This document shows positions 7,660 through 64,000 of a stretch of DNA of 64,000 nt, piece after piece. The DNA is from a virus (taxonomy: Duplodnaviria; Caudoviricetes), in IMG/VR virus record IMGVR_UViG_3300028410_000746, one strand, 5' to 3'. A model generated the notes under the pieces. It was not told the DNA's origin. It did not search any database and was given only the letters and a program-made list of their open reading frames with translations. Every line of letters starts with the position of its first letter. Within the stretch, counting starts at the first letter, position 1. Both the position numbers and the translations under genes were made by a program.

Positions 7660-7694
7660 GGCGCCGTGCATCTCAGCACGGCGCCTTTCTTTTT
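7660..7694 (+). terminator. Rho-independent terminator
   Basis: Stem GGCGCCGTGC (7660-7669) / GCACGGCGCC (7676-7685), 6-nt loop, then TTTCTTTTT. Confidence 0.9.
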
Positions 7695-7702
7695 GGAGGG
7701 TC

Positions 7703-7743
7703 TATATACCCTGTTGACTCTTAAGCGTCAAGGGGGCTATGCT
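7703..7743. promoter_or_regulatory. Overlapping divergent sigma70-like promoters
   Basis: Plus strand: TTGACT(7714-7719)-N18-TATGCT(7738-7743). Minus strand: TTGACG(7731-7726)-N17-TATATA(7708-7703). Confidence 0.65.
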
Positions 7744-7766
7744 CAGAAGGCCTACTACGGAGATCA

Positions 7767-8114
7767 ATGTCGATGCAAATGCCTGAGCTTATGGTGCACG
7801 AGTTTGAGACCTTTGTGTGGTCTTTAGAGCAGTGGTATGAGCGCCACCCGATGCCGGCTCCCCTGGTAACACGTTGGATTGGCCTCTTCCTGGAGGCATA
7901 CGAAAGCCGAGACCTCCATGAGTTTGGAGTCTCGGCTGCGTGGGTGGCCCGTGTGCTGTACTCAGACTTGCTTGAGTCTCCGATGCGTAATCAATACGCC
8001 AAGTGGGCGCGGCACGCGTCACTCTGTGCTCGGGTAGCGGGGGGTAGGCCCTTGGTCAGTCATGTGCTCCGACACCGCGTCAAGACACCTCCCGAGATGG
8101 TGTTGCTTCACTGA
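7767..8114 (+). CDS. Hypothetical protein
   Basis: 115-aa ORF with GGAG upstream, downstream of the plus-strand promoter. Confidence 0.55.
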   Translation: MSMQMPELMVHEFETFVWSLEQWYERHPMPAPLVTRWIGLFLEAYESRDLHEFGVSAAWVARVLYSDLLESPMRNQYAKWARHASLCARVAGGRPLVSHVLRHRVKTPPEMVLLH

Positions 8115-8550: not shown

Positions 8551-9006
8551 TCAGGAGCCGAGAAGGCTGGGGAGGAACTCCGCAGCGTCTTCGTAGCTGG
8601 GGAAGATGTGGTCGGCGGCCTGTCGAATGAACGCGTGGTCCATGCAGTGCTCCTCGGTCAGGCCGGCGAGGACAACGAGCGTGTGGGGTTGCTTGTACGC
8701 CCACGCGATCTCGAAGGTGGTCCCGAGTGAGCGTGAGGTCGCTCCCGTCACGTCCGCGAACAGGACGTCCGCCTGTGCGACCATCCACTGATCACGACCA
8801 AAGATGGAGCGGTCGTTCGAGAGAGGGTCCTCGTAGCCCTTGGCCTTGGCCGTCCCCAGTCCGAGCAGGTGCTCCTTGCCAAGCATCGGATGCAGGACGT
8901 CGAATCCCATCTCCTTGAGCTGTGCCGCTCGGTTGTGGAAGTGGATGTATGCTTCGTCGAGGTTGAGTCCCGTGATGGGTCCCGCGACGTAGACGGTCTT
9001 GGACAT
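8551..9006 (-). CDS. Nucleoside 2-deoxyribosyltransferase / DNPH1-like N-glycosidase family protein
   Basis: VYVAGP at the N-terminus, IFGRDQWMVAQADVLFAD and SLGTTFEIAWAY match the NDT family signature S.GT..E.G.A. AAGGAG RBS. Confidence 0.8.
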   Translation of the reverse strand: MSKTVYVAGPITGLNLDEAYIHFHNRAAQLKEMGFDVLHPMLGKEHLLGLGTAKAKGYEDPLSNDRSIFGRDQWMVAQADVLFADVTGATSRSLGTTFEIAWAYKQPHTLVVLAGLTEEHCMDHAFIRQAADHIFPSYEDAAEFLPSLLGS

Positions 9007-9095
9007 GCTATGCTCCTTGGGTGGTATTGCTCTTGTAGGGTGCGTGCCTGTACCCCGTTTTGGGGCTCATATGACTTGCGAAAGGTACCACGGGT

Positions 9096-9674
9096 ATGAC
9101 CCTGGAACAACTCAAACGTGTCCTGCTGGCCCTGGGGGTGCAACACCCCAACGTCAAGATCCCTCTAAGGGCGGTCATGGATACGCTCACCCGTGAGGAC
9201 TTCGACCCCTCCCGGATCGTGGCAGCACGCCGATCACGCGTGGCAGCTTACGAGGCTCTTGACTTCACCCCTCCAAAGGCAGCACAGAACGCAGCCTCAA
9301 GGGGTCTGGAGCTGCGCAAGAAGCAGGAAGGGGACAAGGCCGGCCTGACGACGCAGGAGGCAGGAGAGCAGGGTATCGGTTCCGGTGTCCAACGCGCCGC
9401 TGACCTCAAGGCCGGCAAGGCGCTGAGCCCGGATACCATTCGCCAGATGCACGGCTTCTTCTCCCGCTTCCAGGCCCTCATCAAGAAGGCTCGGAAGCTG
9501 ACCAAGGAAGACGACATCCTGGAGTCGAACATGTACGTCTCCGACCTACTCTGGGGAGGCGCGCCTGCTCAGAAGTGGGCCGAGAAGCTCGTCAGTCAAA
9601 TGGATGCGGAAGACAAGAAGAAAGAGGCAGCTCTCGCACGTCGAGTCGCCACCATCTACCTCAACAGCCACTGA
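9096..9674 (+). CDS. Conserved phage head-associated domain protein (start may be ATG 9177)
   Basis: FTPPKAAQNAASRGLELR...RAADLKAG..LSPDTIRQMHGFFSRF...LLWGGAPAQKWA resembles a widespread phage domain. C-terminus ends ARRVATIYL. Confidence 0.65.
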   Translation: MTLEQLKRVLLALGVQHPNVKIPLRAVMDTLTREDFDPSRIVAARRSRVAAYEALDFTPPKAAQNAASRGLELRKKQEGDKAGLTTQEAGEQGIGSGVQRAADLKAGKALSPDTIRQMHGFFSRFQALIKKARKLTKEDDILESNMYVSDLLWGGAPAQKWAEKLVSQMDAEDKKKEAALARRVATIYLNSH

Positions 9675-11262: not shown

Positions 11263-12917
11263 TGACTCACAAGACTACACGCATGTCCAAGGCCGGTCAG
11301 GTCTTCTTGCACTTCACCAGCCGCAAAGACGCTGGCTTGATCAAGCGGTCTGGCAAGCTGTGGTCGTCGAGCTATGTTGAGGGCGTCTACGCCATCGAAG
11401 AGGGGGGCGCCTACATACCCGGAGTCCAACAGGGTTCATTGGGCCGCACGAAGGTCCGCGACACGGCGGTCGTTTTCACGACGCGAGTGCCTCCCAACCA
11501 GCGCTACTCGGAGGAGACCATCTGGTATGCGGATTCGATTCCCGTGCGCGTTCTGGAGGTCCTCCCCGTGGACCGAGCCGTATCGAAGTACCTCTACGTG
11601 CCGGGGTCAGACTCGAAGCTGTACACGAAGATGGAGGAAGCCGCGCGTAAGCTCCAGGAAGACCCTGCGATCACGCGGAAGGCAAAGTCGCTTCTTGGCG
11701 TGGACTGCAAGGTCTTCCTGGACATCCCCGCCGAACTTCGAGGGGGCAAGGTGCGGGTCGTGTTGTATCTGATGATGTCGCCCGGCGCTGACCCAAACAT
11801 CCCCTCCGAGCGCGACCTTGGACGCATCCTGCAAGAGGCCTTGGAGGCGCAAGGCCTCTCGGTACAGGTCACCCCGGAAGACTTCTCCCTGGAAGATCGT
11901 ACGGGCCCGGACAGCCTGTATAACGACACGCTCATGACTGCGTTCTTCCTGGTCGAGGAGCCTTCCGGATCACGTAAGGGTACGTCCCACCAGCGCGAGC
12001 TTGCTGTACGCGTCGCATCACTGTGGAGCCATCGTGAGCGTCTCGCGGGAGCGCCCGCGCGTGCGCGTCAAGATATGGCCAAGAAGCTCCTGTCGCACCT
12101 GCTCCGTAATGCGAACTGGATTCCTTCGGCTTTCAGCGACGGCCTGGAAGCCATCGTGCCCGCTCAACAGCTTCTGAGTCTACCGGAGTGGCCTGCGAAC
12201 ACTCCCGCGCGCCTGCGAGTACAGGTGAGTACGCGTCTCCAGACGTCCTCATACAGCGCCTCAAGGATTCGCCTCAAGGTCCGTGAGGAGCCCACAGAGG
12301 AGAACATCTACCTCCTCCTGGGGACTCCGCGTGTGCGGTCCTCTTTGCTCCACGAGCTGGTGCATTACGTGGACGACATGGCGCAGCGTCTCAACCTCTC
12401 CAAGGACTACGACTCCTCGAACCGCGACACGTACTTCAACGAGGCCGGCGAAATCAGCGCCTATGTTGGCCAGCTCGCCGGGTCGGTCGGCTCTACGTCC
12501 ATGCGACGACTGCGCAAGGCCTTGCGTGGGGTCCGCAGCGGCAAGCCTCTCCACACGGTGCTGTGGGAGGTACCGGAGCTGTCAGGTTGGGGCAGCGAAT
12601 ACTTCACCGAGCTGCTCGACGTAAGCAGCATCACCGACAACCCCCTACGAAACGGGGACTACTTCAACAAGCTCGACGTCTCCCATCTCAAGCTCTTGGG
12701 CAAGCACCTCAAGCCCAAGGAGCGTCGCACCTTCCTCCGGGACCTGTACCTTTCCCTGGAGCGCATCCGACGTCGTGAGCTGATTCCGGAGGTGGCGAAG
12801 TTCCTCAAGAGCCGGCCCGAGGTCCTGGAGGTCGAGGAGGACGAGGAATACTCATGGAAGCCCTCGGGCCCCAAGACCGCCAAGGCGTGGTGGGCGTGGC
12901 TCCTCAAGCAGGCTTGA
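11262..12917 (+). CDS. Multidomain protein with an N-terminal ART-like (HxT) domain and a HExxH zincin metallopeptidase-like domain
   Basis: ATG overlaps the upstream TGA, with GGAGGGAGG RBS. Motifs LHFTS...LIKRSGKLWSS...GVY and SSLLHELVHY...YFNEAGEISAY. Confidence 0.6.
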   Translation: MTHKTTRMSKAGQVFLHFTSRKDAGLIKRSGKLWSSSYVEGVYAIEEGGAYIPGVQQGSLGRTKVRDTAVVFTTRVPPNQRYSEETIWYADSIPVRVLEVLPVDRAVSKYLYVPGSDSKLYTKMEEAARKLQEDPAITRKAKSLLGVDCKVFLDIPAELRGGKVRVVLYLMMSPGADPNIPSERDLGRILQEALEAQGLSVQVTPEDFSLEDRTGPDSLYNDTLMTAFFLVEEPSGSRKGTSHQRELAVRVASLWSHRERLAGAPARARQDMAKKLLSHLLRNANWIPSAFSDGLEAIVPAQQLLSLPEWPANTPARLRVQVSTRLQTSSYSASRIRLKVREEPTEENIYLLLGTPRVRSSLLHELVHYVDDMAQRLNLSKDYDSSNRDTYFNEAGEISAYVGQLAGSVGSTSMRRLRKALRGVRSGKPLHTVLWEVPELSGWGSEYFTELLDVSSITDNPLRNGDYFNKLDVSHLKLLGKHLKPKERRTFLRDLYLSLERIRRRELIPEVAKFLKSRPEVLEVEEDEEYSWKPSGPKTAKAWWAWLLKQA

Positions 12918-18032: not shown

Positions 18033-18057
18033 CCCCTGATAAAGAGAGACGAACCCC

Positions 18058-21000
18058 ATGGCCAAAGATATCCAGGAGCTGATTGTATCGGTTGGCCAAA
18101 GGGGCATGGCTGACCTTGAGCGCACGTTCAAGAACCTGGACGGGGTGGTCGGCAACTCTTTGGAGGGTCTGTCTCGGTACAACCGCAAGCTCTCGGAGGA
18201 CTCGTCCGCCGCTGAAACGCAAGTCAAGGCCATCCACAACACCTTGACGACCCTGGAGAGGGGCATCGCGAGCGCGGGCAAGGGCCTCTCGACGACCTTT
18301 GACGGGCGGCAGATCGCGCAGTTCGACACCAAGCTGCGTGGGATGCGTCGTCAGCTCGACAAGACCCGTGATGCGTTGGAGGGTGCAGCGCTCTCGGGAG
18401 ATAAGGCGACCGAACGCGCCATGCGCACCCGCCTGGGTTCGATCCAGAAGACGATCGACGCTGAGGTCTCGGGGTTCAGCAAGCTCTACACGTCTCATCG
18501 TGAACAGTTCGAGCAGCTCTCCAAGCTCCAGAAGCGAGGCCTCGGCCAGAACGTGGCGGCGGGTGGTAAGGGTGCCGCGAACCTCATCTCTCAGGTCAGC
18601 GGCGGGAACCTCAAGGGCGCAGCGGGTACTCTCGGACAGGCAGGCAAGGTTGGTTTCCAGAGCGCGCAGCGTCGTGCCTTTGCCGGTGCCGCTGGGGGCA
18701 GTGCCGGGGCCGCAGGACTCTCCAGTGCGCTCGGGGGGTTGGCCAAGATTGCAGGACCTCTCGCGGCCGTTGCGGCCGTCGTCGGATCACTGGTCAAGGC
18801 CTTCCTCGACCTGGACGCCAAGGTCAAAGACGTCAACAAGTCGATGCTCAAGAACGTCCCCTTGACGAGCCTCGCCGCCGATGGCTTCAGCGACATGAAC
18901 GACAAGATCGCAGACGGTGAGAACGCGCTGGCGGACTTCCGAAACACAGTCTTGACCGACGCCGACTTGCGCATGCTCGGGATGACTCCCGAGATGATGG
19001 CATCCACGATGGCGGCCATCGAGGAGCAGGCGGGGGGTCTCAGTCAGCTCCGCCGTGAGGGCTTCTCGGCACGCGACGCGTTGGAGGCCGCCCAGATCGC
19101 GGCCCTCAACCTCGGCGTGGACTCCAACGAGACCATGGGTCTGGTGGGGCAGCTCATGGACGTCACCAGCGCGTCGACGGGAGAGGCTCTGTCTTCCTTG
19201 AGTCAGATCGTATCCACGGCGCAAGATGCCGGAGTCTCCACGCGCAAGTTCTTCCAGGTCGTCCAGGGCGTCGTGGGTGAGATGGGGCTCTACAACTACC
19301 GGCTCGAAGAGACCGCCGCGTTGTTCGGGAAGCTCACCACCATCATGGACTCCAAGTCCGCCGAGTCGTTCGCCACGAGCCTGTCTTCGGCCATCAAGAA
19401 CGCCTCGGCCACGGACAGGACCCGTACCTCCTTGATCGTGGGCTCGAAGACGATGGGGGAGATGACCGATCGAGCACAGGCGGCGGCAGCCAGTGGCATC
19501 AACGAGGACGTCCTCGCCAACGCCATGCGCAAGCTCGGGCTTGGCGCTCAGTTCCAGTCGGGTAACGTCGCAGGTTCGATGGGCGGCTTGAGCGAGAGGC
19601 AGCGTCTGGCGGTGATGTCGGCGGTGTCTGATGAGGACCAGGGACAGGGAGAGCGTCTCCGAAAGTTCGAGAACCTGCGTGGCGTCAACCGTAACAACGC
19701 CATGGAAGTCCAGGGTGCTATGGGGGACTTCAACCAGTACGACCAGATGGCTACTAAAATCATGGAGCTTGAGAAGTCCCTGTCGATGCCTCTCTCGCAA
19801 ATGAACTCGGTACTTACGGAGGGTATGGGCACGAACGAAGATCAGCTTCGTATCTTCAAGACCATCCAGGGGGAAGGCAAAGGCGACATGGCCCGGCTTC
19901 AGATGCTTCTTGAGAAGGGCGTCGGCGGGTCCGCCTTCTCGGAAGCGGCCAAGGAGATGGGATACATCGTCTCCGAGGAGAACGGCAAGATCCTGGACTC
20001 TCAGGGTAACGAGATCAAGTCGTTCAATCAGCTCTTCGCCACGATGGACGATGAGAAGGCCAAGGACCTACAGGAGAAGCAGAAGACCCTTGCCGAGAAG
20101 CAGTCGGACCTCCAGCGCACCATGCTCGACACGATCAAGTTTCAGCTCATGGATTTGGTCCAGGGTATTTACACTACGATCCTGGACATTTACGACGCGT
20201 TGGTCAATTCAAAGTTCTTCGGGGGCAGCCAGGAGTCTCGTGACCGTTCGGCCATGGTTCGTAAGGAGATGAAGACTCGGGACCAGATCCGAACGATAGA
20301 TCAGGATCTGGGATTGGCCCGCGAGCAGGGAGATTCAGGACGAGTGCGTGAGCTGGAGGCTCAGAGAGAGGCACTCAAGTCCAGCCTTGATACGCAGCAA
20401 CGGGCCCGAAGGCATCTCAAGAAGAGCGGCTCTTTGGGCATGGCAGGCGCGACGGCACTTGCGAGCGGAGATCCGGCAACCGGAGGCTTGAGCTACGAAT
20501 ACAGCGGAGGCATGGGTCGCCGCTTTGAAGAAGACGAGTATTCAGGCCTCACGATGGGCGACAGCAAGCTGACCGGTATTGTAACCTCTTCCGGGAAACG
20601 AATCACCGGAGAGGATGCGATCAAGGCCTTCGTCGCGGAGCAGGAGAAGAATAAAAAAGCGGCGCAGGGAACAATCGGCTCTCTGATTCAGAGCAAGGTT
20701 GATGACGGCGAGGAGCTGTATCCCGAGGACGCCAAGAATCTCGCGGAGAAGACCAACAACTTGCTGGAGAGTAAAGGGATTCTGCTCGCTCCGAAGACCA
20801 TCAAGGATCTCACAGATGTTATGCTCCAGGCTCAGATCGACAAGCAGGTGGTCAGTGAGATCATGCGCACGACCGGCCGAAGCAAGGCAGACTCCGAGTT
20901 CCTGCTTGGCAAGTACAAGAGCGGTGATGAGGCTGCGATTAATCAGGTCGGCAAGGAAGGGAACCTCCAGGGTATCTTCGCCAACTACGGCGTACAGACG

Positions 21001-28482: not shown

Positions 28483-28517
28483 TCCTGTACGGGTGTGTCG
28501 TTTTGTCTTACATCCTC

Positions 28518-28546
28518 TATATACCCCAAGGAGGGGGGGCCGTCAA
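28518..28546 (-). promoter_or_regulatory. Sigma70-like promoter TTGACG-N17-TATATA
   Basis: -35 at 28546-28541 and -10 at 28523-28518. Spacer and downstream UTR are nearly identical to the copy at 52.5 kb. Confidence 0.75.
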
Positions 28547-28581
28547 ATAAAGACTTCACCTGATGCCTCGGGAGAGAGGGC

Positions 28582-28611: not shown

Positions 28612-28721
28612 AATGAAGTCTGGAGCGGTGAGGAGCGGTGACGGTCTTTGTCACTGGACCCTGAAAGTCTTTGAAAACTGAATACTTACGTGATTTCACC
28701 CATGTGACTTCTTGTCGCAGA
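28612..28721 (+). promoter_or_regulatory. CRISPR array 1 leader
   Basis: Positions 28665-28721 match the array 3 leader at 50 of 57 positions (counted by hand). Confidence 0.85.
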
Positions 28722-29368
28722 CCCCTCCCCGTGTACGCGGGGATGTCCCGTGCCTACCCTTGTCTACGAACGGGGCGCGGCCCCCCTCCCCGTGTACGCG
28801 GGGATGTCCCCCTTCGACGGTCACGACGACCATCGACACCAACCCCCTCCCCGTGTACGCGGGGATGTCCCCTACAACCTGGGCTCGGCTCGCTCCAGGC
28901 AAGCCCCCTCCCCGTGTACGCGGGGATGTCCCCACCCACATCACGACCTCGAAGGACTCGTTGGTCCCCTCCCCGTGTACGCGGGGATGTCCCCATGGCG
29001 TCTGTCATGGGCAACAGGATGGACTTCCCCTCCCCGTGTACGCGGGGATGTCCCCGGGTACGTGAGCGCCTTGGCGGAACCCTTCCCCGTGTACGCGGGG
29101 ATGTTCCCCGTGTACGCGGGGATGTTCCCCATTACAGGGCGGCACACCCTAGGTTCATAACCCCTTCCCCGTACACGCGGGGATGTTCCCCAGACACCCC
29201 AGATCCACCTTGGCGTCCAGACCCCTTCCCCGTACACGCGGGGATGTTCCCCTCACACCGAACGAGCGAACGCCAATGTGCCCTTCCCCGTACACGCGGG
29301 GATGTTCCCACCATGCCTTTTTGGACATGCACTGATTGTCGCTTCCCCGTATACGCGGGGATGTTCCT
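28722..29368 (+). CRISPR. Type I-E CRISPR array 1: 12 repeats (one overlapping, last degenerate) and 10 spacers
   Basis: 29-nt repeats CCCCTCCCCGTGTACGCGGGGATGTCCCC start at 28722, 28783, 28844, 28905, 28966 and 29027. Hybrid repeats at 29080 and 29101. CCCTTCCCCGTACACGCGGGGATGTTCCC at 29162, 29223 and 29281; degenerate repeat at 29340. Spacers are mostly 32 nt, plus one each of 24, 29 and 30 nt. Confidence 0.97.
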
Positions 29369-29420
29369 GTTCCTGTTCCGTCTCGTTCTCCTCTCTATTG
29401 CCGTGGCAAAGGAGCCTGAT

Positions 29421-52491: not shown

Positions 52492-52532
52492 GTCGTCGTC
52501 TCCTGCGGTGTGTCGTTTCGTCTTACACACCC

Positions 52533-52561
52533 TATATACCACAAGGAGGGGGGGTCGTAAA
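52533..52561 (-). promoter_or_regulatory. Sigma70-like promoter TTTACG-N17-TATATA
   Basis: Near-copy of the 28.5-kb promoter and UTR. Confidence 0.75.
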
Positions 52562-52563
52562 AA

Positions 52564-53967: not shown

Positions 53968-54034
53968 AACTATCTCAGTCTTCGAGGCTTCGAATGCCCA
54001 CGGTCTGGTAGGTCTCAAAGCCCACAACCTCTTC

Positions 54035-54490
54035 TGGGACATCCCCGCGTGCGCGGGGAACACGCTCCCCTTCGATACAGAGATCTTCTTTCTACCGGGA
54101 CATCCCCGCGCACGCGGGGAACACGGGTAGAACAAGAAGATGTATGAGAGGGGATCCGGGACATCCCCGCGCACGCGGGGAACACCGGACGAGCATGGGG
54201 AGACGTATTCGCCCTACCGGGACATCCCCGCGCACGCGGGGAACACTTGAAGCTGGAAGGATGCACGAGATGTGCGTGCGGGACATCCCCGCGCACGCGG
54301 GGAACACACAGGTGTGATCACAAGAGCATGTCGCCTCATCGGGACATCCCCGCGCACGCGGGGAACACGTCAAAGCTGGTCACCTTTGGAGCGTGAACGG
54401 CGGGACATCCCCGCGCACGCGGGGAACACCATGACACCGACACACCCGCACTTGGTGCATCCGGGACATCCCCGCGCACGCGGGGAACAC
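54035..54490 (-). CRISPR. Type I-E CRISPR array 2: 8 repeats and 7 spacers of 32 nt
   Basis: Repeat GTGTTCCCCGCGTGCGCGGGGATGTCCCG (minus strand) with a 61-nt period; plus-strand starts at 54096, 54157, 54218, 54279, 54340, 54401 and 54462. Terminal variant at 54035-54063. Confidence 0.98.
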
Positions 54491-54600
54491 TCTTCAAATG
54501 TTCAAGCCTTCGGAAGTGTACCTAACCCCCTGTATTCGCTCAGGAATTCTGTTGGCATGGGGTACACCGTTTTACTTTACCAAATCGTACCCTGCGGTAC
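54491..54600 (-). promoter_or_regulatory. CRISPR array 2 leader
   Basis: AT-richer segment between the cas8e-cas11 stop and the first repeat, ending ...TTGAAGA|GTGTT. Candidate TTGTAC-N17-TAAAGT promoter. Confidence 0.8.
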
Positions 54601-54609
54601 AAGCCTGAA

Positions 54610-56817
54610 TCAGGAGGCCTTCTTGGTGGGGGCGCGGTAGTAGGTGCGCGTCCACTCCATCTGCGTCTGAGAGCCCCAGGTGAGGAGGCTCAGGATGAGG
54701 TCGTTGGCGTCGGCACCCTGACCCTCAATGCGTCCGAGGACGTTGCGGAGCTGGCGCCAGTGGCCGTTCAAGGTGCCTCCCGAACACAGGCGCTCGAACG
54801 AGCGCTCCTTGATGTCACGAGACTGCGCGAGGACGCGCGCGACGGGGCGGTTGCCCTTGAAGCCGGTGGGCTTGAGGCCCGCGAGCAGGACCGCCAGGAG
54901 GAACACGCGCTCCTGCAACTCGGGGGCGTTCTCACCAAGGTTACGCTCCACCACCTTCTCCAGGGCCTTCTCCAGCAGGATGGCGGGGCGCATGTAGCGT
55001 ACGTCCTGGAGGTTCTTGGCGCGAGAGAGCGCGACGCGGCCGGAGCCCTTGTCGTGGTGGAGGTTGCGCCACCACTTGTGGACCACGGAGAGGATCTCAT
55101 CCTTGTGGGCGTATACGATGTTGTTCATGGGGTTCTTCTCTCTCTTGGTGGAGGTGCCGCAGAGTTTGAGGAGCTGCTTTTCGAGCCCGGCTCGTTCCCT
55201 CACGGCGGATGTGATGGTGCGGGTGTTCATGCGCGATTTGCGAGTGACACGGCCTCCAACGAGGGAGTCGAAGATCGTGAGCGCGGTGGTCGCGAGGAGG
55301 CGCTTGTAGGGCGTATAGACCATCTCCTCAAGCTCCTCCCGGTTGGTCGTGAGCTTGACCTTGGCGAGCGCGTCGTATGCAGCCTGTTCGGTGTGTGACC
55401 ACAGCTCGGAGTTGTTCCGGCCTCCCAGGCAGGCGACCTTCGCGCGGAGCACCTTATCCACCTCGGACGTGAGCTTGACCAGCGCCCCGAAGGTGTCCTC
55501 ATCACGCAGAGCCTGTGAGCCCTCGAAGATGAAGATGTACTTCTCGAAGAAGCTCACCGTCTTGCCCGCAAACATGTTGAATCCGAAGACACGCAGCGGG
55601 GGAAGCCCTCCCCATACCTCATCCCAATGCTCCGCGACCTCATCGTACAGGAAGGCCTTGCGCTTGGTGTGGGTGATGATTGGGGGCGTGTGGAGGGTCT
55701 CGGAGTAGGCGTGGGAACCCAGAACGTTCCACGTGCGCCTGTTGGTGACGGTCTGCACAGCGCGGACATCTTTCACATCTTTGGGGGTCCACTTGCCGTT
55801 GACGCCCATCGTCTTGAGGTTCTTGAGGGTGGTGGCGTTGTTGGGGAGCTGCCAGACACCCGACATGGGGATGCACTGACGAGACCCCGGCAGACCTTCC
55901 CACTTCTCGGACTGCGCTGTGTAGCGCTGCCGGTTGCCCCAGGGCTGCGCATCCACGTAGTCCAGGAGCCCGTCCTCATCCGGCTCCGGCAGGACCCACT
56001 CACGCGTGAGGTGCCAGAACGCGGTCAAGGGGTGGTAGTCCAGGTCGTGAGCGCGCCACCCCTCGATCTGACTCTCTTCGACCCAGGGGAACTCGAACTC
56101 GGGGACGGTCTCCTGTCCCCACAGAGCGTTGATTTCAGGTTCAGTGAGGATGTTGTTGAGGACCTCCTCGCAGAGGTCGCGGCCGCTGAAGACGTACCAC
56201 AGGCTGCCGTTGTTTCCGTAGCCGGGTCGCGATGTGCCACGTGAGAACTTGTTCCCCGCGTCCATGCGAAACTCGGCCGCCAGGATGAACGCGATGGCGT
56301 CCCCAGGCGTCAGACGCTGCCGGGGATCACGGCCCAAGTCCATGCTGAAGGGGAGCGGCCGCGTGACCTTCTCCGAGTCGAAGTCGAAGCCTGAGGAGGA
56401 GGACCCCAGCGCGTGCGTGTTGAAGCGGTAGCGGCCTATCTCAGTGGCGCACGGCAGGTCGGACTTCTTGATCTTTCTGATATCTTCGGTCCACTCGCGC
56501 AAGGCGGGCGTGGCCTGGAACGCACGGTACCCCGGCCCGTAGACGTCGAAGAAGTCTTCCTCACTCAGAAAGCGCTTCTTGAAGTCGAGGTTCTCGCCGC
56601 GCGTCAGGTGCATCTCGACCCACTCGTCGTCGTCCTTGGGCGCGGCCACCGTCTGGACCAGTGCCTGAATGAAGTGTCGGACGCCCTCATTCATTACGGA
56701 GTGGGGGTAGTCGAGCTTGAGGCCGGGTTCCGTGAACTCGTGCGGTCGGATGAGCTTGGACTTTCCCGTGGCGTCCTGAACCCGAATCCAAGCGTCGGTC
56801 ATGAGATTGAGTGACAT
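54610..56817 (-). CDS. cas8e-cas11: Type I-E Cas8e (Cse1/CasA) fused in frame to Cas11 (Cse2/CasB)
   Basis: N-terminus MSLNLMTDAWIRV, LTPGDAIAFIL...GRDLCEEVLNNI and YHPLTAF are Cse1-like. The last 172 aa from Met564 (KWWRNL...GRVALSRA...ERSFERL...WTRTYY) are Cse2-like. No stop separates them. Confidence 0.85.
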   Translation of the reverse strand: MSLNLMTDAWIRVQDATGKSKLIRPHEFTEPGLKLDYPHSVMNEGVRHFIQALVQTVAAPKDDDEWVEMHLTRGENLDFKKRFLSEEDFFDVYGPGYRAFQATPALREWTEDIRKIKKSDLPCATEIGRYRFNTHALGSSSSGFDFDSEKVTRPLPFSMDLGRDPRQRLTPGDAIAFILAAEFRMDAGNKFSRGTSRPGYGNNGSLWYVFSGRDLCEEVLNNILTEPEINALWGQETVPEFEFPWVEESQIEGWRAHDLDYHPLTAFWHLTREWVLPEPDEDGLLDYVDAQPWGNRQRYTAQSEKWEGLPGSRQCIPMSGVWQLPNNATTLKNLKTMGVNGKWTPKDVKDVRAVQTVTNRRTWNVLGSHAYSETLHTPPIITHTKRKAFLYDEVAEHWDEVWGGLPPLRVFGFNMFAGKTVSFFEKYIFIFEGSQALRDEDTFGALVKLTSEVDKVLRAKVACLGGRNNSELWSHTEQAAYDALAKVKLTTNREELEEMVYTPYKRLLATTALTIFDSLVGGRVTRKSRMNTRTITSAVRERAGLEKQLLKLCGTSTKREKNPMNNIVYAHKDEILSVVHKWWRNLHHDKGSGRVALSRAKNLQDVRYMRPAILLEKALEKVVERNLGENAPELQERVFLLAVLLAGLKPTGFKGNRPVARVLAQSRDIKERSFERLCSGGTLNGHWRQLRNVLGRIEGQGADANDLILSLLTWGSQTQMEWTRTYYRAPTKKAS

Positions 56818-56858
56818 GGTGTGTCTCGTAGGTAGAGAGGGGAGGTGGGGAGGCGCGC

Positions 56859-57569
56859 TCAGAGCGTGTGCATGTGGGCGCTAAACTCGCGCCGCACCTT
56901 GTGGGACCCTTGACGGGTCAGATCGTGGGGCACATCACGACGGAAGGTTGACCGTCGGCTACCTTCGAGGCCAAAGTCTTCATCCCAGAACACCTGTCCC
57001 GGCACCACGGTTCGGTCAAGGTAGTAGAAGCTACTCGCCACGGCCTCCTCCAGACACTCACGCGGCGTGGTGGACTGTAGGACCCGTGGATTGAGAGGCG
57101 CGCTTGGCGGACAGCTCTTGCGGCCAAAGTAGATAGGCCAGTAGGGACGCTGGAGCGCCGCGATGATACCGTCGACGTCCTCGTCGGGTACCTGGAGCAG
57201 GACCACCCAGGTCTGGTCCTGGAGGTAGTACCTCTCCGAGGTCAGGGAGTCCGTCTTGGGGCTTTGCGGGTCCAGCTCCTCCTGGCGCGTGGTCACGTAG
57301 CCCTTGAAGCAGCGGATGAGGTGGTAGTCTCGAAGCGGCGGGGGGCTCACCGAGGCTCCCTCAAGCTGGAGCTGGACGCACGCCATCTTGATGGTGTTTG
57401 CCAGCCTCTGGTGGTGAGCCTGATCGTCACGCTCGATGCCTTGCGCGCACGCGATCATCCCGAGTATGGCCGATTTCGTCGGGCTCTGGTCCGTCGTGCG
57501 CAGCGCCGCGCGCGCCGCGTTTCCGAAGCTCATGAGAGGGGCTCGAATGTCGCAGGCGAGTGTTTGCAT
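56859..57569 (-). CDS. cas5e: Type I-E Cas5 (CasD)
   Basis: APLMSFG...RTTDQSPTKSAILGMIACAQGIER, RYYLQD and IYFGRKSCPPSAP. AAGGAGG RBS before ATG at 57569. Confidence 0.95.
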   Translation of the reverse strand: MQTLACDIRAPLMSFGNAARAALRTTDQSPTKSAILGMIACAQGIERDDQAHHQRLANTIKMACVQLQLEGASVSPPPLRDYHLIRCFKGYVTTRQEELDPQSPKTDSLTSERYYLQDQTWVVLLQVPDEDVDGIIAALQRPYWPIYFGRKSCPPSAPLNPRVLQSTTPRECLEEAVASSFYYLDRTVVPGQVFWDEDFGLEGSRRSTFRRDVPHDLTRQGSHKVRREFSAHMHTL

Positions 57570-57633
57570 AGGTACCTCCTTTGTGGTACTCAAAAGATAC
57601 CACAAGGTTCAAGATGGGGTCAAGTGGTTCGAT

Positions 57634-58365
57634 TCAGAGGGCCACAAGGGCGGCGGCGGGCTTGAGAAGGACAAGGCCGGCCCCGAAGGCCTTGCCCCGA
57701 CCGATGCCGTTGCGCCACAGGGTCACGAACTTCTCGGGGTCGGTGACCTCGACGCGCGCCTCAAGCTGCACGAAGTCCATCGTAATGGGGTTGCGCCGTC
57801 CCACGCCCTGCTCGGAGAACACGGGGGTCAAGGCGGTGACCCTGTGCAGCTTGAAGCCGCCGTCCTCCGAGCGCCTCTCAAGCCACTCGAAGAGGAGGGC
57901 GTCGAGGTCGCGAGGCGTCTCCCCATTCGCTTCGCACATGAGCTTCTCGTAGGTCTGGAGACCCAAACGCTTGGAGCGCCCCTTGGGCACGATCCGCTCG
58001 TCACGGGTACAGACGGTGGCGTTGACCCATGCTCGGAGGTCGAGGCCGGCACCCATGTGCATCGTGGGCTGCTCGATCGTCTTGGTCAGAAGCTTCACGT
58101 AGCCGTGAGGGTCCGAGGGGATCTCCGTGGACTGGATGTAGAAGGAGGAGCCCTTGAAGGGGGTGAACATGAAGGGTCGGTCTTTGCGGTCCTCCACCGG
58201 GTCGAAGAGGTCCCAGACGAACTGGTGTGCGGTGTAGATGCCCTCGGACGTGTAGCGGGAGAGCTGCTCGATTCCCTTGGCCGTGAAGGTGGCGCGTGAG
58301 ATGTAGAGAGGGGTCGAGGTGGGGGGTGTGGTGGTGTTGAACGGGATGTTGACTTGCGTGCTCAT
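57634..58365 (-). CDS. cas6e: Type I-E Cas6e (Cse3/CasE)
   Basis: AHQFVWDLF and the C-terminal G-loop GIGRGKAFGAGL. GGAG RBS before ATG at 58365. Confidence 0.95.
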   Translation of the reverse strand: MSTQVNIPFNTTTPPTSTPLYISRATFTAKGIEQLSRYTSEGIYTAHQFVWDLFDPVEDRKDRPFMFTPFKGSSFYIQSTEIPSDPHGYVKLLTKTIEQPTMHMGAGLDLRAWVNATVCTRDERIVPKGRSKRLGLQTYEKLMCEANGETPRDLDALLFEWLERRSEDGGFKLHRVTALTPVFSEQGVGRRNPITMDFVQLEARVEVTDPEKFVTLWRNGIGRGKAFGAGLVLLKPAAALVAL

Positions 58366-58441
58366 TGATAACTCCAAAAATACCCCCGCACGAGGCGGGG
58401 AGGTTGAGAGGGGACCCCCGCGTGAGCGGGGAAAGGGGCAC

Positions 58442-59788
58442 TCACTCGGCGGCGGCGGTCTCGGAGGCCTCCACGGCGATACCGAGCGTCTGGTAGATGG
58501 CATCCACGATGTCATCCAGGGTCGTACACACCTCGCCGCCCGACTCCAGGGCCGTGAGGTCCTTGGTCGAGGACCACGTGAGGACACGCTCATGGTCGAC
58601 GCCCACGCGGGTCACGATGCGGTTGTGGTGGTCCTCCAGGCGCGTGAGGGCCATCTGAAGAGGATCGTTGGACTCCACAGGCACCAGGAACGCGTCGGTG
58701 TACTGAGTGTTCTGGGTCTCCCCGATGGTCACCATCAGGTAGGGGGACGGGATGCTCGCAGCCATCGTGGACTGGTTACCCGAGGGGCGCACCATCACGA
58801 GAGCCTTGACGAAGGCGTGGATGGTCTCACGGAGGAGGTCCTCCTGACCGCTCCCGAAGCGGCGAGCCAGCTCACCGATGTGGAGGCCCACGTAGGCGTA
58901 GTTGACGCCCGAGGTGAAGCTCTTGTGGCCCATATGCGAGGCGCCCGTATTGGAGTTGAAGCAGTCCTGAGCCGAGAAGAAGTCGTCCTCCTCGGGCATC
59001 ACGCCGACGCCGATGGTGTGCGCGAACTGGACGCAGGCCGCTTCATTGTCCTGTGCGAGCTGCGCGACCATGCGGCCGAAGAGGCTCACGTCGACGTTGG
59101 GCATCCTCGTGAGGTCCGTGAAGCTCTTCGCGGTCTCAGTCAGGCTCTCGAAGACGACGGAGGGGTCCGTGAAGTCCAGACCCACCAGCGCCTCGAAGCC
59201 CAGCGTCAAGACCTCCTGCTCCGCCTGCTTGAGCTTGATGGCCGAGCCGAACATGCGGCCGTCCTTCTTGTCGCTCTTTTTGTTCTTCTTCTTCTTGGTG
59301 TCTCCTTCGGACTCGTTCGACTCGTCGTCGAGAGCGTCCTTGGTCGAGTACGGCGTGATGCCTCCCTCGGCGTACAGGGTACCATCCGCGATGAGGCCCT
59401 TGAGGAGCGTGAGAAGCGCCGCTTCGGTCTTCTTGGTGAGCTTGGCGCCCTTGAAGCACTGCGTGAAGAAGTTCGGCGTCGTCATCATGTAGGCGAGCAG
59501 CGCGGCGGCTCGATACGACCTCTCAGCCTCCTGGCCCGCCTCGACGGCCTTCTCACTCTTGAAGACCAGGAACGATCTCGTGTTGTCGCTCATGACCTTG
59601 CGCTGACGGAGCACATCGAAGTGCATGGAGGCACGAATCGCCGCCTTCTCCGCTTGGCTGGAGATGCGGTAGCGCATGGCGTTCCCGAAGAAGGAACTCT
59701 TGGGGTTACCCGCGTCATCGCGGTTGATGTTGCTGGGGGGCAGCACACCGAGCATGTGGAACTGGAGCTTTGTTTTCACGTTCATCAT
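58442..59788 (-). CDS. cas7: Type I-E Cas7 (Cse4/CasC)
   Basis: PPSNINRDDAGNPK...RYRISSQAEKAAIR, DVSLFGRMVA, ACVQFAH and DDFFSAQD. Confidence 0.97.
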   Translation of the reverse strand: MMNVKTKLQFHMLGVLPPSNINRDDAGNPKSSFFGNAMRYRISSQAEKAAIRASMHFDVLRQRKVMSDNTRSFLVFKSEKAVEAGQEAERSYRAAALLAYMMTTPNFFTQCFKGAKLTKKTEAALLTLLKGLIADGTLYAEGGITPYSTKDALDDESNESEGDTKKKKNKKSDKKDGRMFGSAIKLKQAEQEVLTLGFEALVGLDFTDPSVVFESLTETAKSFTDLTRMPNVDVSLFGRMVAQLAQDNEAACVQFAHTIGVGVMPEEDDFFSAQDCFNSNTGASHMGHKSFTSGVNYAYVGLHIGELARRFGSGQEDLLRETIHAFVKALVMVRPSGNQSTMAASIPSPYLMVTIGETQNTQYTDAFLVPVESNDPLQMALTRLEDHHNRIVTRVGVDHERVLTWSSTKDLTALESGGEVCTTLDDIVDAIYQTLGIAVEASETAAAE

Positions 59789-59858
59789 GTCTGGACTCTC
59801 ACTACAGTGGGTAAAAGGACCTTCGAGCTTTCAGAGGCTTCGTGCCTCGACGGAAACG

Positions 59859-59915
59859 ACACTAACTCCGATGTTAGAGCAGTGTCAAGCGGTTTCTTTA
59901 ACGCTTGACACTGCT
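59859..59915 (-). promoter_or_regulatory. Candidate Cascade operon promoter TTGACA-N18-TAGTGT overlapping a 14-bp perfect inverted repeat
   Basis: Arms AGCAGTGTCAAGCG (59878-59891) and CGCTTGACACTGCT (59902-59915). -35 at 59888-59883 and -10 at 59864-59859. Confidence 0.75.
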
Positions 59916-59935
59916 GTGCGGTATGAAAAAAAGAC

Positions 59936-62566
59936 CTAGAGGACTTGGAGTCCCAGGATGTGGTCGTAGATGAGGGTGACGGATACCGGGGCGCCCTTGG
60001 GGGAGAGCTTGGTCATGTTGACCCTCCACGCGTCGGCGGGTGCGCTGAGGTCGTCCACGGTCACGATCAACACGGAGTCGGTAGAGTGGAACGGGAGCTG
60101 CGCCAAAAGTTCGTGCTGCTCCGGGCTCGGGTCGAGCCGCTCTCCGGCCATGTACATGGGGATAGCGATGCCAGAGGCCTTGATGCCTCCGTTGTGGATA
60201 CGCCGGAGTCGATCGCCGTCAACGAAGTGGACCTCCCAGATGCACGTAGGGATGGCGTCTCGGGTGTGTATGGCCACGTTCTTACCCCACTTGCTGACCG
60301 ACTCACGGTAGCTGCGGGTGAAGTCGAGAGACCCCAAAACAGCCGATGCTCGCGTCTCCTGGTCACGGGCGGTGGAGGCTTGGTGCGAGCGGGCCAGACC
60401 GGCCGGAATCAGTGCGTTGATGTCGTCCAGGATCTCACGCGTATGGGTGGGAAGCTCCCAGGACCTCAAGGCACACATCGCCGCGCTGGCGTACACACGG
60501 CCTGCATCCCCATAGACGTAAGATGTCCCCCCATGATGAGGGGAGCCGCTGAGCCATTGAGCGTGTGGAGTCCCGGCCAAGGAGGGCGTGAACAGGCCCA
60601 TCTCGACGTGCACCTCTTCCCCACTCTCGTGACGCAGGACGCGACCCGAGCGCTGAATCAGGAGGTCGGCCTCGCATACATCGGAGACGCCCCAGTCAAA
60701 GCTGACATCCAAAGACTCCTGGAGCACCTGCGTGCATATGACGATGTAGCCCTCACGCTCTTGGGGATCGGCGCCCTTACCGAAGCGACGCAGCACCTCG
60801 GCGTCACGTACCTCACGGTGTCCGACCGTGTAGCGAGAGTGCAGCAAGAGCACTCGGTCATACCCTGACAAGGCTTCATAGGCCGCACAGGCGGCGCGCA
60901 CGGTGTTTCGGAACCACACCACCGCCTCACCTCGGTTGGCTCGCCGGTGCAGCTCTTCCACGATGGGGTCGAGCCCACGCCGATCCTCTTCAAAGACGTT
61001 CCAGTGCACGTGCCGGATCTGGTGTGCGTCCACCGAGACCACGTTGATGTGGCCGCTGGAGCTGACGTGCGTGAGCGCGGGCAAGGGGACATCGGGGAGG
61101 TCTACAACCTCTCCTCGATACGCGGAGGCGAGCGCGCGGCGTGTCTTGGAGTCGCAGGTGGCGCTCATGGCGATCACGGGCTGTCCCTGTCGCCCGCAGT
61201 AGGCGAGCAGGTTACAGAGCAGAGGGAGCATGTGAGCGTCGAAGGCGTGGACCTCATCTATCAGAAGCACGGTACGGGTGAGCGCGCTCAGTCGCATGGG
61301 CGCAAAGTATCGCCCGATCGTCGCCAGGAGGGCTTGGTCTATTGTGCAGACATTGATTTGCGAGAACATGCTCTGTCGGGAGGACTTGAGCAGCCACTCG
61401 GAGGCGCTAATCAGGCCTCCATTCGAGTTGCGTTGAGCCTTCCACGGCTTGAATTCACTTCGAGTCGAGTGAATGAGCGCCATCGTGACGGGCTCATCAA
61501 AGGTTGCCTCCGTCCAGGCGTGCGCACGCCCGTAGAGGCCGTTGGCGGTAGCGCGAGTAGGCAACGCCAACGTCAGCCCTTTGTAGTCGCCATCACGCAT
61601 CATCTGACGCGCGAGCGCGAGCCCTACCTCCGTCTTACCCGCCCCCGTAGAGGCCTCGATGAGGACAAACCCGTCCGCAGAACTCAAGAGGGTCTCAGCA
61701 CCTACCTGGAGAGGCCGAGGTTCCCAGGTATCGTCGAGGAGACCGCTCCAGAAGGAGTAGGTGGTAGAGAGGGGCGTGTAGAGGATCTCCACGTCTGTAC
61801 ACGCCCTCTCCGCTTGAGGCTGTGCGATGGTCTCCCAATAAGCTCTCGGGTCCATACGCGCGCCACGCAGCGGGAAGTATTCAGGCGTGGAGCCCAGCCA
61901 ATCCGAGATCATCCCGACGCCCGCCAGGAGGTAGCTCGCGAAAGGCAGGTCCGGAGGGTTGGAGTAGTCGCCACGCATGGGTCCAAATACGCCCTGGATG
62001 ATTTCGGAGAGGTACGCAGTCAGGCGCTCGTCGCACCCAGGCACTCCCCACTGGAGCTGAGCCGTACGTGGGGTGGCGCCTTCTCGCTTCTGATGAGGCA
62101 AGGCGTAGCCGTGATGGCTCAGCGCGCTATGCAGCAGCGTCGTGATGTGGCGTCGTTCCTGACGCCCAGTACCGCTCTTGAGGTACTCCCGGATCACGTT
62201 CCTGCGTTCCCATCCCACCAGATCGTGACGGGCTTCGGTCTCACGCGCACCATCAGGCTGGGGGGTGATATCCAGGAGCGTACAGGCGGGTGCGCTTCGA
62301 GCCTGGAAGTTGTCCGTGAGCTTACCGATGTCATGGCAAGCGTAGAGCATGGGGAGGTCATGCCACAGGTCGTACATGCTCACACCCAAGGCCTCCGACA
62401 AGGGACGCCACCAACGCTCCTCGTGCCTGAGCAAGTGATTCACGACCGCCGCGACGTCGAGGTTATGATACACCACGCGGTGAATGGCAGTCACGGCCTC
62501 TTGTGAGCCGGGAGGCTGGTCTGTCTTGGCCCAACAGTCCCACATACCGATAGGTTTGGTCGTCAT
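59936..62566 (-). CDS. cas3: CRISPR-associated Cas3 (HD nuclease plus SF2 helicase)
   Basis: YHNLDVA, CHDIGK, SHHG and SDWLGS (HD domain). PRPLQ, ASTGAGKTE, TIDQ, DEVH, SAT, LHSRY, TQVLQESLDV and QRSGRVLRH (helicase). Confidence 0.98.
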   Translation of the reverse strand: MTTKPIGMWDCWAKTDQPPGSQEAVTAIHRVVYHNLDVAAVVNHLLRHEERWWRPLSEALGVSMYDLWHDLPMLYACHDIGKLTDNFQARSAPACTLLDITPQPDGARETEARHDLVGWERRNVIREYLKSGTGRQERRHITTLLHSALSHHGYALPHQKREGATPRTAQLQWGVPGCDERLTAYLSEIIQGVFGPMRGDYSNPPDLPFASYLLAGVGMISDWLGSTPEYFPLRGARMDPRAYWETIAQPQAERACTDVEILYTPLSTTYSFWSGLLDDTWEPRPLQVGAETLLSSADGFVLIEASTGAGKTEVGLALARQMMRDGDYKGLTLALPTRATANGLYGRAHAWTEATFDEPVTMALIHSTRSEFKPWKAQRNSNGGLISASEWLLKSSRQSMFSQINVCTIDQALLATIGRYFAPMRLSALTRTVLLIDEVHAFDAHMLPLLCNLLAYCGRQGQPVIAMSATCDSKTRRALASAYRGEVVDLPDVPLPALTHVSSSGHINVVSVDAHQIRHVHWNVFEEDRRGLDPIVEELHRRANRGEAVVWFRNTVRAACAAYEALSGYDRVLLLHSRYTVGHREVRDAEVLRRFGKGADPQEREGYIVICTQVLQESLDVSFDWGVSDVCEADLLIQRSGRVLRHESGEEVHVEMGLFTPSLAGTPHAQWLSGSPHHGGTSYVYGDAGRVYASAAMCALRSWELPTHTREILDDINALIPAGLARSHQASTARDQETRASAVLGSLDFTRSYRESVSKWGKNVAIHTRDAIPTCIWEVHFVDGDRLRRIHNGGIKASGIAIPMYMAGERLDPSPEQHELLAQLPFHSTDSVLIVTVDDLSAPADAWRVNMTKLSPKGAPVSVTLIYDHILGLQVL

Positions 62567-62829
62567 GTAGCTCTCAGCTTGGCGAGATGAATGGCGTGCT
62601 TGTATTTGGCCGATTCCACGTAGGTGGAGCTTCCCAGGAGCTTCGAGCCTCCTGACGAAGAGAAGAAGCGGGCGAGGTAGGGGGGGTTCTTCTTGTAGGA
62701 GGTCTCGGAGCGGTGAATCTCCATACGACCCTCGGGGACCTCACATGTGAAGTAGCGCGTAAGCCCAGCGGGACCGTGAACTTCCCATTGCAGCGTCTTG
62801 GAGAGCTTCTCGGCAGCCGTGATTTCCAT
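62563..62829 (-). CDS. Small hypothetical protein translationally coupled to cas3
   Basis: 88 aa; GAGG RBS; its stop overlaps the cas3 ATG. Confidence 0.65.
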   Translation of the reverse strand: MEITAAEKLSKTLQWEVHGPAGLTRYFTCEVPEGRMEIHRSETSYKKNPPYLARFFSSSGGSKLLGSSTYVESAKYKHAIHLAKLRAT

Positions 62830-63197
62830 CAAGCCACCTCTACGGGCGCGCCGCACAGGTGGCAGAACTGCGAGGCGGGGATCAGCTCAGTCCCGCAGTT
62901 GTGGCAATACACGGCCTTACGGGGACCCTCCACCTCGAACTCCCCGAGCAGGTCGAGGTACGTATCATCCCTGCATCCCGCCAAGGAGAGTCGAATGCCG
63001 GGGAGGAGGTCGTCGTGGTGGTAGTCATGACCCTTGTGCAACAAGGTCGCGTTGTCTGCGTTGGGGGGACCCTGGAGGTCATTGACCCTACGCCCTCCAG
63101 GCTTGAAGACCCATAGCCGCACGGGGTACCCTCGATCAAACTCCAGCTCTCCGGTGCGACCTGTTGTGGATGCGACTTCATACTCATGATGTTTCAT
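62829..63197 (-). CDS. Double zinc-ribbon domain protein
   Basis: C-terminal YCHNCG...QFCHLCG; GGAGG RBS; stop overlaps the next ATG. Confidence 0.7.
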   Translation of the reverse strand: MKHHEYEVASTTGRTGELEFDRGYPVRLWVFKPGGRRVNDLQGPPNADNATLLHKGHDYHHDDLLPGIRLSLAGCRDDTYLDLLGEFEVEGPRKAVYCHNCGTELIPASQFCHLCGAPVEVA

Positions 63198-63200
63198 ATC

Positions 63201-63247
63201 TCAACCTCCTGTGGTCTGTATATACCACAGGAGGTTGAAGCTGTAAA
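63201..63247 (-). promoter_or_regulatory. Candidate cas3 operon promoter TTTACA-N17-TATATA inside a 15-bp perfect inverted repeat
   Basis: Arms TCAACCTCCTGTGGT (63201-63215) and ACCACAGGAGGTTGA (63224-63238). -35 at 63247-63242 and -10 at 63224-63219. Confidence 0.8.
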
Positions 63248-63580
63248 AGGAAAACCCCACGTGTGTGGGGAAGGGGCGCGTAACTGCGGGGGAGGTCGTA
63301 GGAGCAGGGGAACATCCCCGCGTGTGCGGGGAAGGGCAACTGTATCAACTCAGCGTCCGGGAGTACGTGGGAACATCCCCGCGTGTGCGGGGAAGGGTTT
63401 TTGGGCGATCTTGCCCCTTTGGATGATCGGGGAACATCCCCGCGTGTGCGGGGAAGGGTTGAGCGTGTCGGCGGCGTCGTCGAGGGCGTAGGGGACATCC
63501 CCGCGTGTGCGGGGAAGGGGCGCTGACGCGCTCCCCCAAGACCGTGATCGTGGGGACATCCCCGCGTGTGCGGGGAAGGG
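63247..63580 (-). CRISPR. Type I-E CRISPR array 3: 6 repeats (terminal one degenerate) and 5 spacers of 32 nt
   Basis: Repeat CCCTTCCCCGCACACGCGGGGATGT(C/T)CCC on the minus strand; plus-strand starts at 63552, 63491, 63430, 63369 and 63308. Degenerate repeat at 63247. Confidence 0.97.
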
Positions 63581-63720
63581 TCTGTGCCAAGAAGTCACAT
63601 GCGTTAGATCGCGTAAGTATTCGGTTTTCAAAGACTTCTCAGATCCAGCGCCGTTCGGTGCCACCCTTGAGCGACCTCTCCGAGGTCCTTATGGTAACCT
63701 TGGAGAGGGAGACCTGTCAA
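63581..63720 (-). promoter_or_regulatory. CRISPR array 3 leader and promoter TTGACA-N18-TACCAT
   Basis: 63581-63637 matches the array 1 leader at 50 of 57 positions. -35 at 63720-63715 and -10 at 63696-63691. Confidence 0.85.
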
Positions 63721-63751
63721 GCCTCTTTCACAGCCTCGAAGAACACGGGGA

Positions 63752-63780
63752 GGGGACATCCCCGCGTGTACGGGGAAGAG
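63752..63780 (-). CRISPR. Solitary type I-E repeat upstream of the array 3 promoter
   Basis: CTCTTCCCCGTACACGCGGGGATGTCCCC on the minus strand, preceded by TGGCACAGA, the same 9 nt that end the array 3 leader. Confidence 0.85.
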
Positions 63781-64000
63781 TCTGTGCCATACGTGTGAAC
63801 TTGAGCATGGGGAAGTCCTCAAAGAAGAAGTAGGGGTCCACGGATTTTCGAGGGTAGCGAAAAAAGCAGCATTGGTAACCTCTTTTGGCAGGGATACCAC
63901 AACCACCTCCCCCACGTCAAGGGGGTATTACGTGCTCCAACGTGCGCCGTGGAACGTGTGCTCCACATCTCGTCCAGCCTGATCCGGGAAGACGGGATGC

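Follow-up and report, generated by a model that had tools for sequence, protein, structure and literature searches.

A phage-borne type I-E CRISPR locus with Cas8e and Cas11 fused in one open reading frame and a candidate internal start for Cas11

Type I-E provides the reference form of Cascade, the effector complex of type I CRISPR systems, with one Cas8e and two free Cas11 made from separate genes. In the canonical complexes of E. coli, T. fusca and T. thermophilus, one Cse1 (Cas8e) is found with two Cse2 (Cas11), six Cas7, one Cas5 and one Cas6e, and is served by Cas3. How, then, might two Cas11 be supplied where cas8e and cas11 are one gene? The question is raised by the IMG/VR record IMGVR_UViG_3300028410_000746, a stretch of 64,000 nucleotides of Caudoviricetes DNA (hereafter the window), which belongs to a 373-kb contig from a lake-water metagenome, where large open reading frames (ORFs) of virion type are present. 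On its minus strand, positions 54610..56817 form a single ORF with an ATG start and a TGA stop at 54610-54612, the product of which, designated P0001, is a fused Cas8e-Cas11 protein of 735 amino acids (83.9 kDa). As detailed below, this fusion is natural and conserved, and is not an assembly error. On the strength of the sequence, we consider it slightly more probable than an even bet that the gene gives two products, namely the full-length Cas8e-Cas11 and a free Cas11 initiated at Met564.

A first reading of the window, made from its letters alone (the sequence-only reading), had proposed that a Cse1-like stretch of 563 residues runs in one frame into a Cse2-like stretch of 172 residues, and both profile searches and fold comparison confirm this for ORF 54610-56817. 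Using hidden Markov models (HMMs), the Pfam family CRISPR_Cse1 (PF09481) was matched by residues 4-500 (E 1.6e-18, 67.6 bits against a cut-off of 24.7). The stricter equivalog TIGR02547 gave 41.6 bits and covered the N-terminal 126 residues only; since its cut-off of 70.05 was not reached, the Cas8e part is regarded as a divergent member. The NCBIfam model casB_cse2 (TIGR02548) was matched from position 2 to position 166 of its 167 by residues 579-729, with 38.0 bits for a cut-off of 28.5. Pfam PF09485 had no match on P0001 at E below 0.1, and its cut-off was passed in the fused homologues P0002, P0003, P0006 and P0071 described below. When 1.84 billion representatives were searched exhaustively with phmmer, residues 569-733 were paired with free-standing PF09485 Cse2 proteins of 168-172 amino acids, and phmmer with the query against PDB sequences returned no match.

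The fold points in the same direction. An AlphaFold2 model of residues 436-735, computed from a 10-row alignment, reached a predicted local distance difference test (pLDDT) of 84 and a predicted template modelling score (pTM) of 0.78, and in it a four-helix bundle (439-553) is joined through a short coil (554-562) to a helical domain. When this domain is superposed on E. coli Cse2 (5h9e_B), the alignment has a Z of 15.9 and a root-mean-square deviation (rmsd) of 2.7 A over 149 of 151 residues, and its best 13 PDB matches are all Cse2/CasB chains of I-E Cascades. The four-helix bundle in turn matches Cse1 in its C-terminal domain (4h3t, residues 392-528), with a Z of 10.3 and an rmsd of 2.8 over 109 residues. 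From the HMM matches, together with this confident fold aligned to Cse2, it follows that a complete Cas8e is followed by a complete Cas11. The ORF comprises, all on the minus strand, an intact Cas8e/Cse1 with its own bundle (residues 1-553, 55159..56817; N-terminal domain plus C-terminal four-helix bundle, delimited by PF09481, the model and the 4h3t alignment), a 10-residue linker (residues 554-563, GTSTKREKNP, 55129..55158) and an intact Cas11e/Cse2 (residues 564-735, 54613..55128; delimited by TIGR02548, phmmer and the alignment to E. coli Cse2). The linker is modelled as a coil with lower pLDDT, and its codons contain a candidate ribosome-binding tract. A six-frame HMM search of the window detected no other cas11; in a complete 437-kb relative (G001), the sole Cse2 match lies inside the fused frame and no Cas1 was found.

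A single frame of this kind could also be artificial, if two separate genes, cas8e and cas11, had been joined by an error of assembly or sequencing through loss of a stop codon or a frameshift between them, and a lost stop or indel at the junction had been envisaged by the sequence-only reading itself. No such change was seen in independent contigs. An 8881-nt Logan contig (depth 14) shows 0 differences from window positions 54518-63398, the identical protein is encoded on the independently assembled 373-kb contig, and a second lake sample, from a different study, provides a 264-nt contig that covers 55115-55378, again with 0 differences. This check used assembled contigs of DNA runs rather than raw reads, and the second-sample contig extends just 11-14 nt past the ATG of Met564, two points that leave some room for an error. 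However, two assemblers produced the same sequence and the second-sample contig spans the joint unchanged, the frame is open in four other fused lineages from unrelated samples, and the linker is just 10 residues long and alignable between lineages. An artefactual fusion is thus regarded as very improbable.

Homologous fusions were found. At 27-31% identity, these are P0002 and P0071 (725-726 amino acids), P0003 (718 amino acids) and P0006 (688 amino acids), all with the two-domain architecture of the window's protein. P0002 (726 amino acids) and its close relatives P0071, P0072 and P0073 occur on five contigs from different runs, one of which represents a phage of 437 kb, complete and with terminal repeats. 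Other searches were less productive. A word-indexed protein search with the whole protein, the fused alignment or the Cas11 region recovered only the query itself; BLAST against GenBank phages (DNA and protein) and plasmids gave no match; scanning IMG/VR for matches to P0003, P0006 or the Cas11 alignment yielded nothing further; and scans of metagenomes and genomes retrieved only ordinary unfused Cas8e N-termini. Among 401 sampled genomes of one phylum, Cse2 was present in 29, none of them with Cse2 in an open frame of more than 416 amino acids, and no full fusion was detected. In the AlphaFold DB, residues 382-698 of the cluster representative A0A3M2LV90 (707 amino acids, named only Cse1/CasA) align to both modelled parts, the four-helix bundle and the Cas11 domain. 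This protein shares the same two-domain architecture, and its alignment across both domains indicates that fused Cas8e-Cas11 proteins go unrecognised in public annotation.

The Cas8e tree gives the direction of the change. P0001, P0003 and P0002/P0071 form a clade (Shimodaira-Hasegawa-like approximate likelihood ratio test, SH-aLRT, 97) that is nested among the unfused P0008, P0004 and P0005. The loci of P0004 (L029) and P0008 (L030/L031), the nearest Cas8e relatives, have the same gene order as the window, cas3-cas7-cas6e-cas5e-cas8e, except that cas8e keeps its stop codon and a separate cas11 (175-193 amino acids) lies 62-72 nt downstream. No cas1 or cas2 is present on the contigs that carry these rearranged unfused I-E loci (L029:5407-10169; L030:1188-9442; L031). 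The L029 locus is situated on an 87-kb contig among unannotated genes. Because the fused clade is nested among unfused relatives with the same rearranged operon, the fusion is derived, and because sister lineages keep two genes it is visibly recent. P0006 (L005-L007) differs from the window's protein in several respects: it branches at a distance from the clade of P0001 in the Cas8e tree, its Pro/Ala linker is long, with 25 residues, and it belongs to an operon of canonical order, cas8e::cas11-cas7-cas5-cas6-cas1-cas2. The best Cas8e tree needs two origins of the fusion, and a single origin was not rejected by the approximately unbiased (AU) test (p 0.35), so that the case for two origins is drawn only from the best tree, the differing linkers and the differing operon orders.

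Within the fused gene, the boundary between the two proteins looks like a site of translation initiation. The ATG of Met564 (55126..55128, minus strand), a candidate internal start with a predicted free Cas11 of 172 amino acids (19.6 kDa, isoelectric point 10.2), is preceded by AAGAGAGAGAAGAACCCC. From Met564 to the conserved WW motif there are 19 residues, the corresponding distance being 16-23 residues in free-standing Cas11e proteins, and residue 3 of E. coli Cse2 falls on residue 571 in the structure alignment. On the same strand, the purine run AAGAGAGAGAAGAA (55133..55146) ends 4 nt before the ATG (AAGAGAGAGAAGAA-CCCC), with no other purine run of at least 9 nt in the 2.2-kb gene; it holds one AGA arginine codon, a codon used for only 2 of the 57 arginines of the gene. 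The mRNA stretch with the Met564 ATG is among the two least structured: the 63-nt mRNA window at this codon has a folding energy of -4.4 kcal/mol against a gene mean of -17.7, and about 1% of the windows of the cas locus are as open. By comparison, the starts of cas3, cas7 and cas8e are more structured (-6.9 to -12.1 kcal/mol) and their Shine-Dalgarno (SD) pairing is weaker (-2.7 to -3.5 kcal/mol, versus -5.3 at Met564). An in-frame ATG at codon 499 with a strong GGAGG upstream was also considered as the Cas11 start and was rejected, as it falls inside helix 3 of the Cas8e bundle and its mRNA is structured (-22.4 kcal/mol).

These features can be accommodated by two mechanisms. If the gene gives two products, initiation at 56817 would yield an 84-kDa Cas8e-Cas11, whose tethered Cas11, placed beside the four-helix bundle of Cas8e, would be the first unit of the Cascade minor filament. 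Initiation at Met564 (55128) would yield the free Cas11, which would fill the second position of this filament and thereby restore the ratio of one Cas8e to two Cas11 found in canonical I-E Cascade. Both the use of the Met564 start and this stoichiometry are what we infer from the sequence. Loss of the cas8e stop codon would have put the old cas11 ribosome-binding region in frame as a linker while the internal start persisted, and the linker residues K-R-E-K-N-P would probably correspond to this region, now also translated. The other mechanism is a tether only: the gene would give one product with a single covalent Cas11, the second position being left empty or filled by a Cas11 of the host's own I-E system, and the ATG with its purine tract would be a relic of the old cas11 start, or mere linker coding. 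This tether-only design is credible, yet we place it somewhat below even chances.

Several comparisons speak against a mere tether. The sequence-only reading had likened the context of Met564 to that of a tape measure gene, and the resemblance proved real: AGAGAGA[C/A]GAACCCCATG occurs in exactly two copies in the window, at 18043-18060 (+) and 55126-55143 (-), with 17 of 18 nt in common. This identity with a real gene start is far above chance, as about 0.18 chance matches are expected for the 18-nt context even allowing 3 mismatches. The copy on the plus strand, AGAGAGACGAACCCCATG (18043..18060), is the intergenic start (18058) of a 1075-amino-acid ORF and serves as a comparator from the same genome; its SD pairing and openness nearly equal those of Met564. 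The tape measure label, however, is unsupported, as this ORF has no PHROG family match. The look-alike context does not belong to the 2277-amino-acid ORF at 41887, which has a different start context.

The related fusions offer a second line of comparison. In P0002-type genes, the aligned codon is an ATG preceded by the tract AAGAAGGACGCC (AAGAAGGACGCC-ATG), at the least structured place in the gene; in the comparison of starts among the fused homologues, the tract of this group is given as AAGAAGGA. In P0003, the motif is GGAG-N6-GTG, one codon upstream of the aligned position. All three lineages of the phage clade, which are about 30% identical, thus have a start-type codon within one codon of the domain boundary, which counts against a mere tether; the chance of such a codon within a 3-codon window is 12-22% per gene. 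The linker region is better conserved between P0001 and P0002 than the protein average. Nucleotide variation was scanned in four distinct P0002-type sequences (92-96% identical). Variable columns average 16.7 per 150-nt window, and the window with the ATG at its centre contains 4 of them. This is the minimum of the gene, with 0.15% of windows as low, and it lies exactly at the junction; such low variation is unexpected for a passive linker, which should be the least constrained part. In the unfused relative L029, the purine-rich ribosome-binding site (RBS) GAAGAGAGGAAAGAA stands directly before the separate cas11 ATG, which suggests that the linker codons of the fused gene are a former cas11 RBS.

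Other observations weigh against internal initiation, and some of them favour the tether. The SD pairing at Met564 (-5.3 kcal/mol) is weak when compared with the AAGGAGG of the phage's well-expressed genes (about -12). Linker coding may by itself account for some of the signature, since hydrophilic linkers are A/G-rich and unstructured anyway, and the low variation at the junction rests on only four close sequences. P0006 has a GTG at the boundary with no RBS-like tract, in an mRNA that is GC-rich and structured; this protein, with its long linker, belongs to a full operon including cas1 and cas2 in spite of having no start-site signature, and a tether-only design therefore seems viable. The second Cas11 may also be dispensable: E. 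coli Cascade without Cas11 is partially active in vivo, retaining about half of its silencing while plasmid interference falls 2-4 fold (PMC12235044), so that two copies may not be required. With no cas1 or cas2 seen and with ordinary I-E repeats, the phage may depend on I-E parts of its host. None of the RNA runs contains the sequence. Finally, the predicted complex of free Cas11 (564-735) with the fused C-terminal half (436-735) scored 0.00, which is evidence neither way.

Synthesis of a free Cas11 from within a larger gene has precedents in other subtypes. In type I-D, and likewise in I-B and I-C, Cas11 was shown to be translated internally, from an ATG with a GA-rich RBS 8 bp upstream of it, and the fused Cas11 copy of these systems was proposed to nucleate the filament (bioRxiv 10.1101/2020.04.18.045682); a hidden, internally translated Cas11 was also described in archaeal I-B (PMC11899642). 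The window resembles these systems in its in-frame boundary ATG after a GA-rich tract, in the lack of a separate cas11, and in the expected layout of one tethered and one or more free Cas11. It differs from them in that the Cas11-like domain of I-B, I-C and I-D is the large subunit's own C-terminal bundle, whereas here a full extra Cas11 follows an intact Cas8e bundle. It also differs in belonging to I-E, where cas11 is normally separate, and its internal product is a prediction from the sequence. McBride et al. (2020) assigned separate cas11 genes, among type I systems, to I-A and I-E, and asked whether fusions arose repeatedly or reverted (bioRxiv 10.1101/2020.04.18.045682). That a type I-E system has arrived anew at the hidden cas11 design, independently and recently, and is caught in the act while unfused sisters remain, is a proposal to which we would give an even chance.

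No description of a natural Cas8e-Cas11 fusion was found in the searched literature, and the 2025 classification update lists the variants I-E2, I-E3 and I-E5 without listing such a fusion. Neither the components nor the proposed mechanism is new; what is new is to meet them in I-E, with unfused sisters available for comparison. If two products are indeed made, internal translation of Cas11, established for I-B, I-C and I-D only, would extend to I-E, and its evolutionary route, a loss of the stop codon with the downstream start kept, would be visible through the unfused sisters. The fusion would also offer a natural setting in which to test nucleation of the minor filament by a tethered Cas11. 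In practical terms, overlooking the internal start would mean that the free Cas11 is lost when such compact phage-borne I-E systems are expressed in a foreign host.

The fused gene is the last of a type I-E interference module that has Cas3 and members of all five Cascade families, and profile searches score them as I-E. The resemblance to canonical I-E extends to the repeats (29 nt) and spacers (32 nt) of the arrays and to the folds of Cas11 and of the bundle. Differences include the gene order, which is cas3-cas7-cas6e-cas5e-cas8e::cas11-array in the window and cas3-cas8e-cas11-cas7-cas5-cas6e-cas1-cas2 in canonical loci, the single cas8e-cas11 ORF, the divergent Cas8e and the carrier, a 373-kb phage contig. 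Along the minus strand, the module comprises cas3 (59936..62566; 876 amino acids, HD and helicase), cas7e (58442..59788; 448 amino acids), cas6e (57634..58365; 243 amino acids) and cas5e (56859..57569; 236 amino acids, with a strong AAAGGAGG RBS). A profile search limited to the ORFs flanking the cas locus, rather than the whole window, gave no match to Cas1 or Cas2. The product of cas7e is larger than the E. coli protein (448 versus about 360 amino acids) and contains a Lys-rich insert; this charged insert, near 59270-59310, includes KKKKNKKSDKK, and relatives of this Cas7e are 463-496 amino acids long. A promoter-like site, TTGACC-18-TATCTT with TG, is located at 57594-57623 (-), just upstream of cas5e, and suggests that cas5e-cas8e::cas11-array may form its own transcription unit. 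No promoter-like site was found inside the fused gene, and a separate cas11 transcript is thus not indicated.

Three CRISPR arrays are present in the window. One, with 8 repeats at a 61-nt period (54018..54490, minus strand), is directly downstream of the fused gene, from which it is separated by its leader (about 54491-54609); another lies upstream of cas3 (63249..63789, minus strand), and the third is at 28716-29376. In contigs of the probable source sample, alternative spacers and skipped repeat-spacer units were observed in the arrays at 54018-54490 and 63249-63789, with array joints 54187>54461 and 63520>63750 and other letters between in each. Both arrays are thus heterogeneous within one lake sample, with no cas1 or cas2 seen. 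A 56-nt sequence (GGTGTGTCGTTT..TATATACC.CAAGGAGGGGGGG) occurs twice, at 28492-28547 and 52507-52562, with 88% identity; one copy stands about 170 nt ahead of array 1 (28716-29376), and the sequence resembles a reused promoter or leader module. Related phages have an unusual interleaved layout, with mini CRISPR arrays ahead of cas3, on both sides of cas6e (towards cas7 and towards cas5e) and behind cas8e::cas11 (L008:2528-2796, 7682-8025, 8789-9134 and 12191-12588; L003:19-168, 5107-5256 and 6092-6360). In the window, the spacer between cas7 and cas6e (58381-58440, minus strand) retains just one or two hairpins that resemble degenerate repeats (TTCCCCGCTCACGCGGGGGTCCCC, and CCCCGCCTCGTGCGGGGG with a T run after it).

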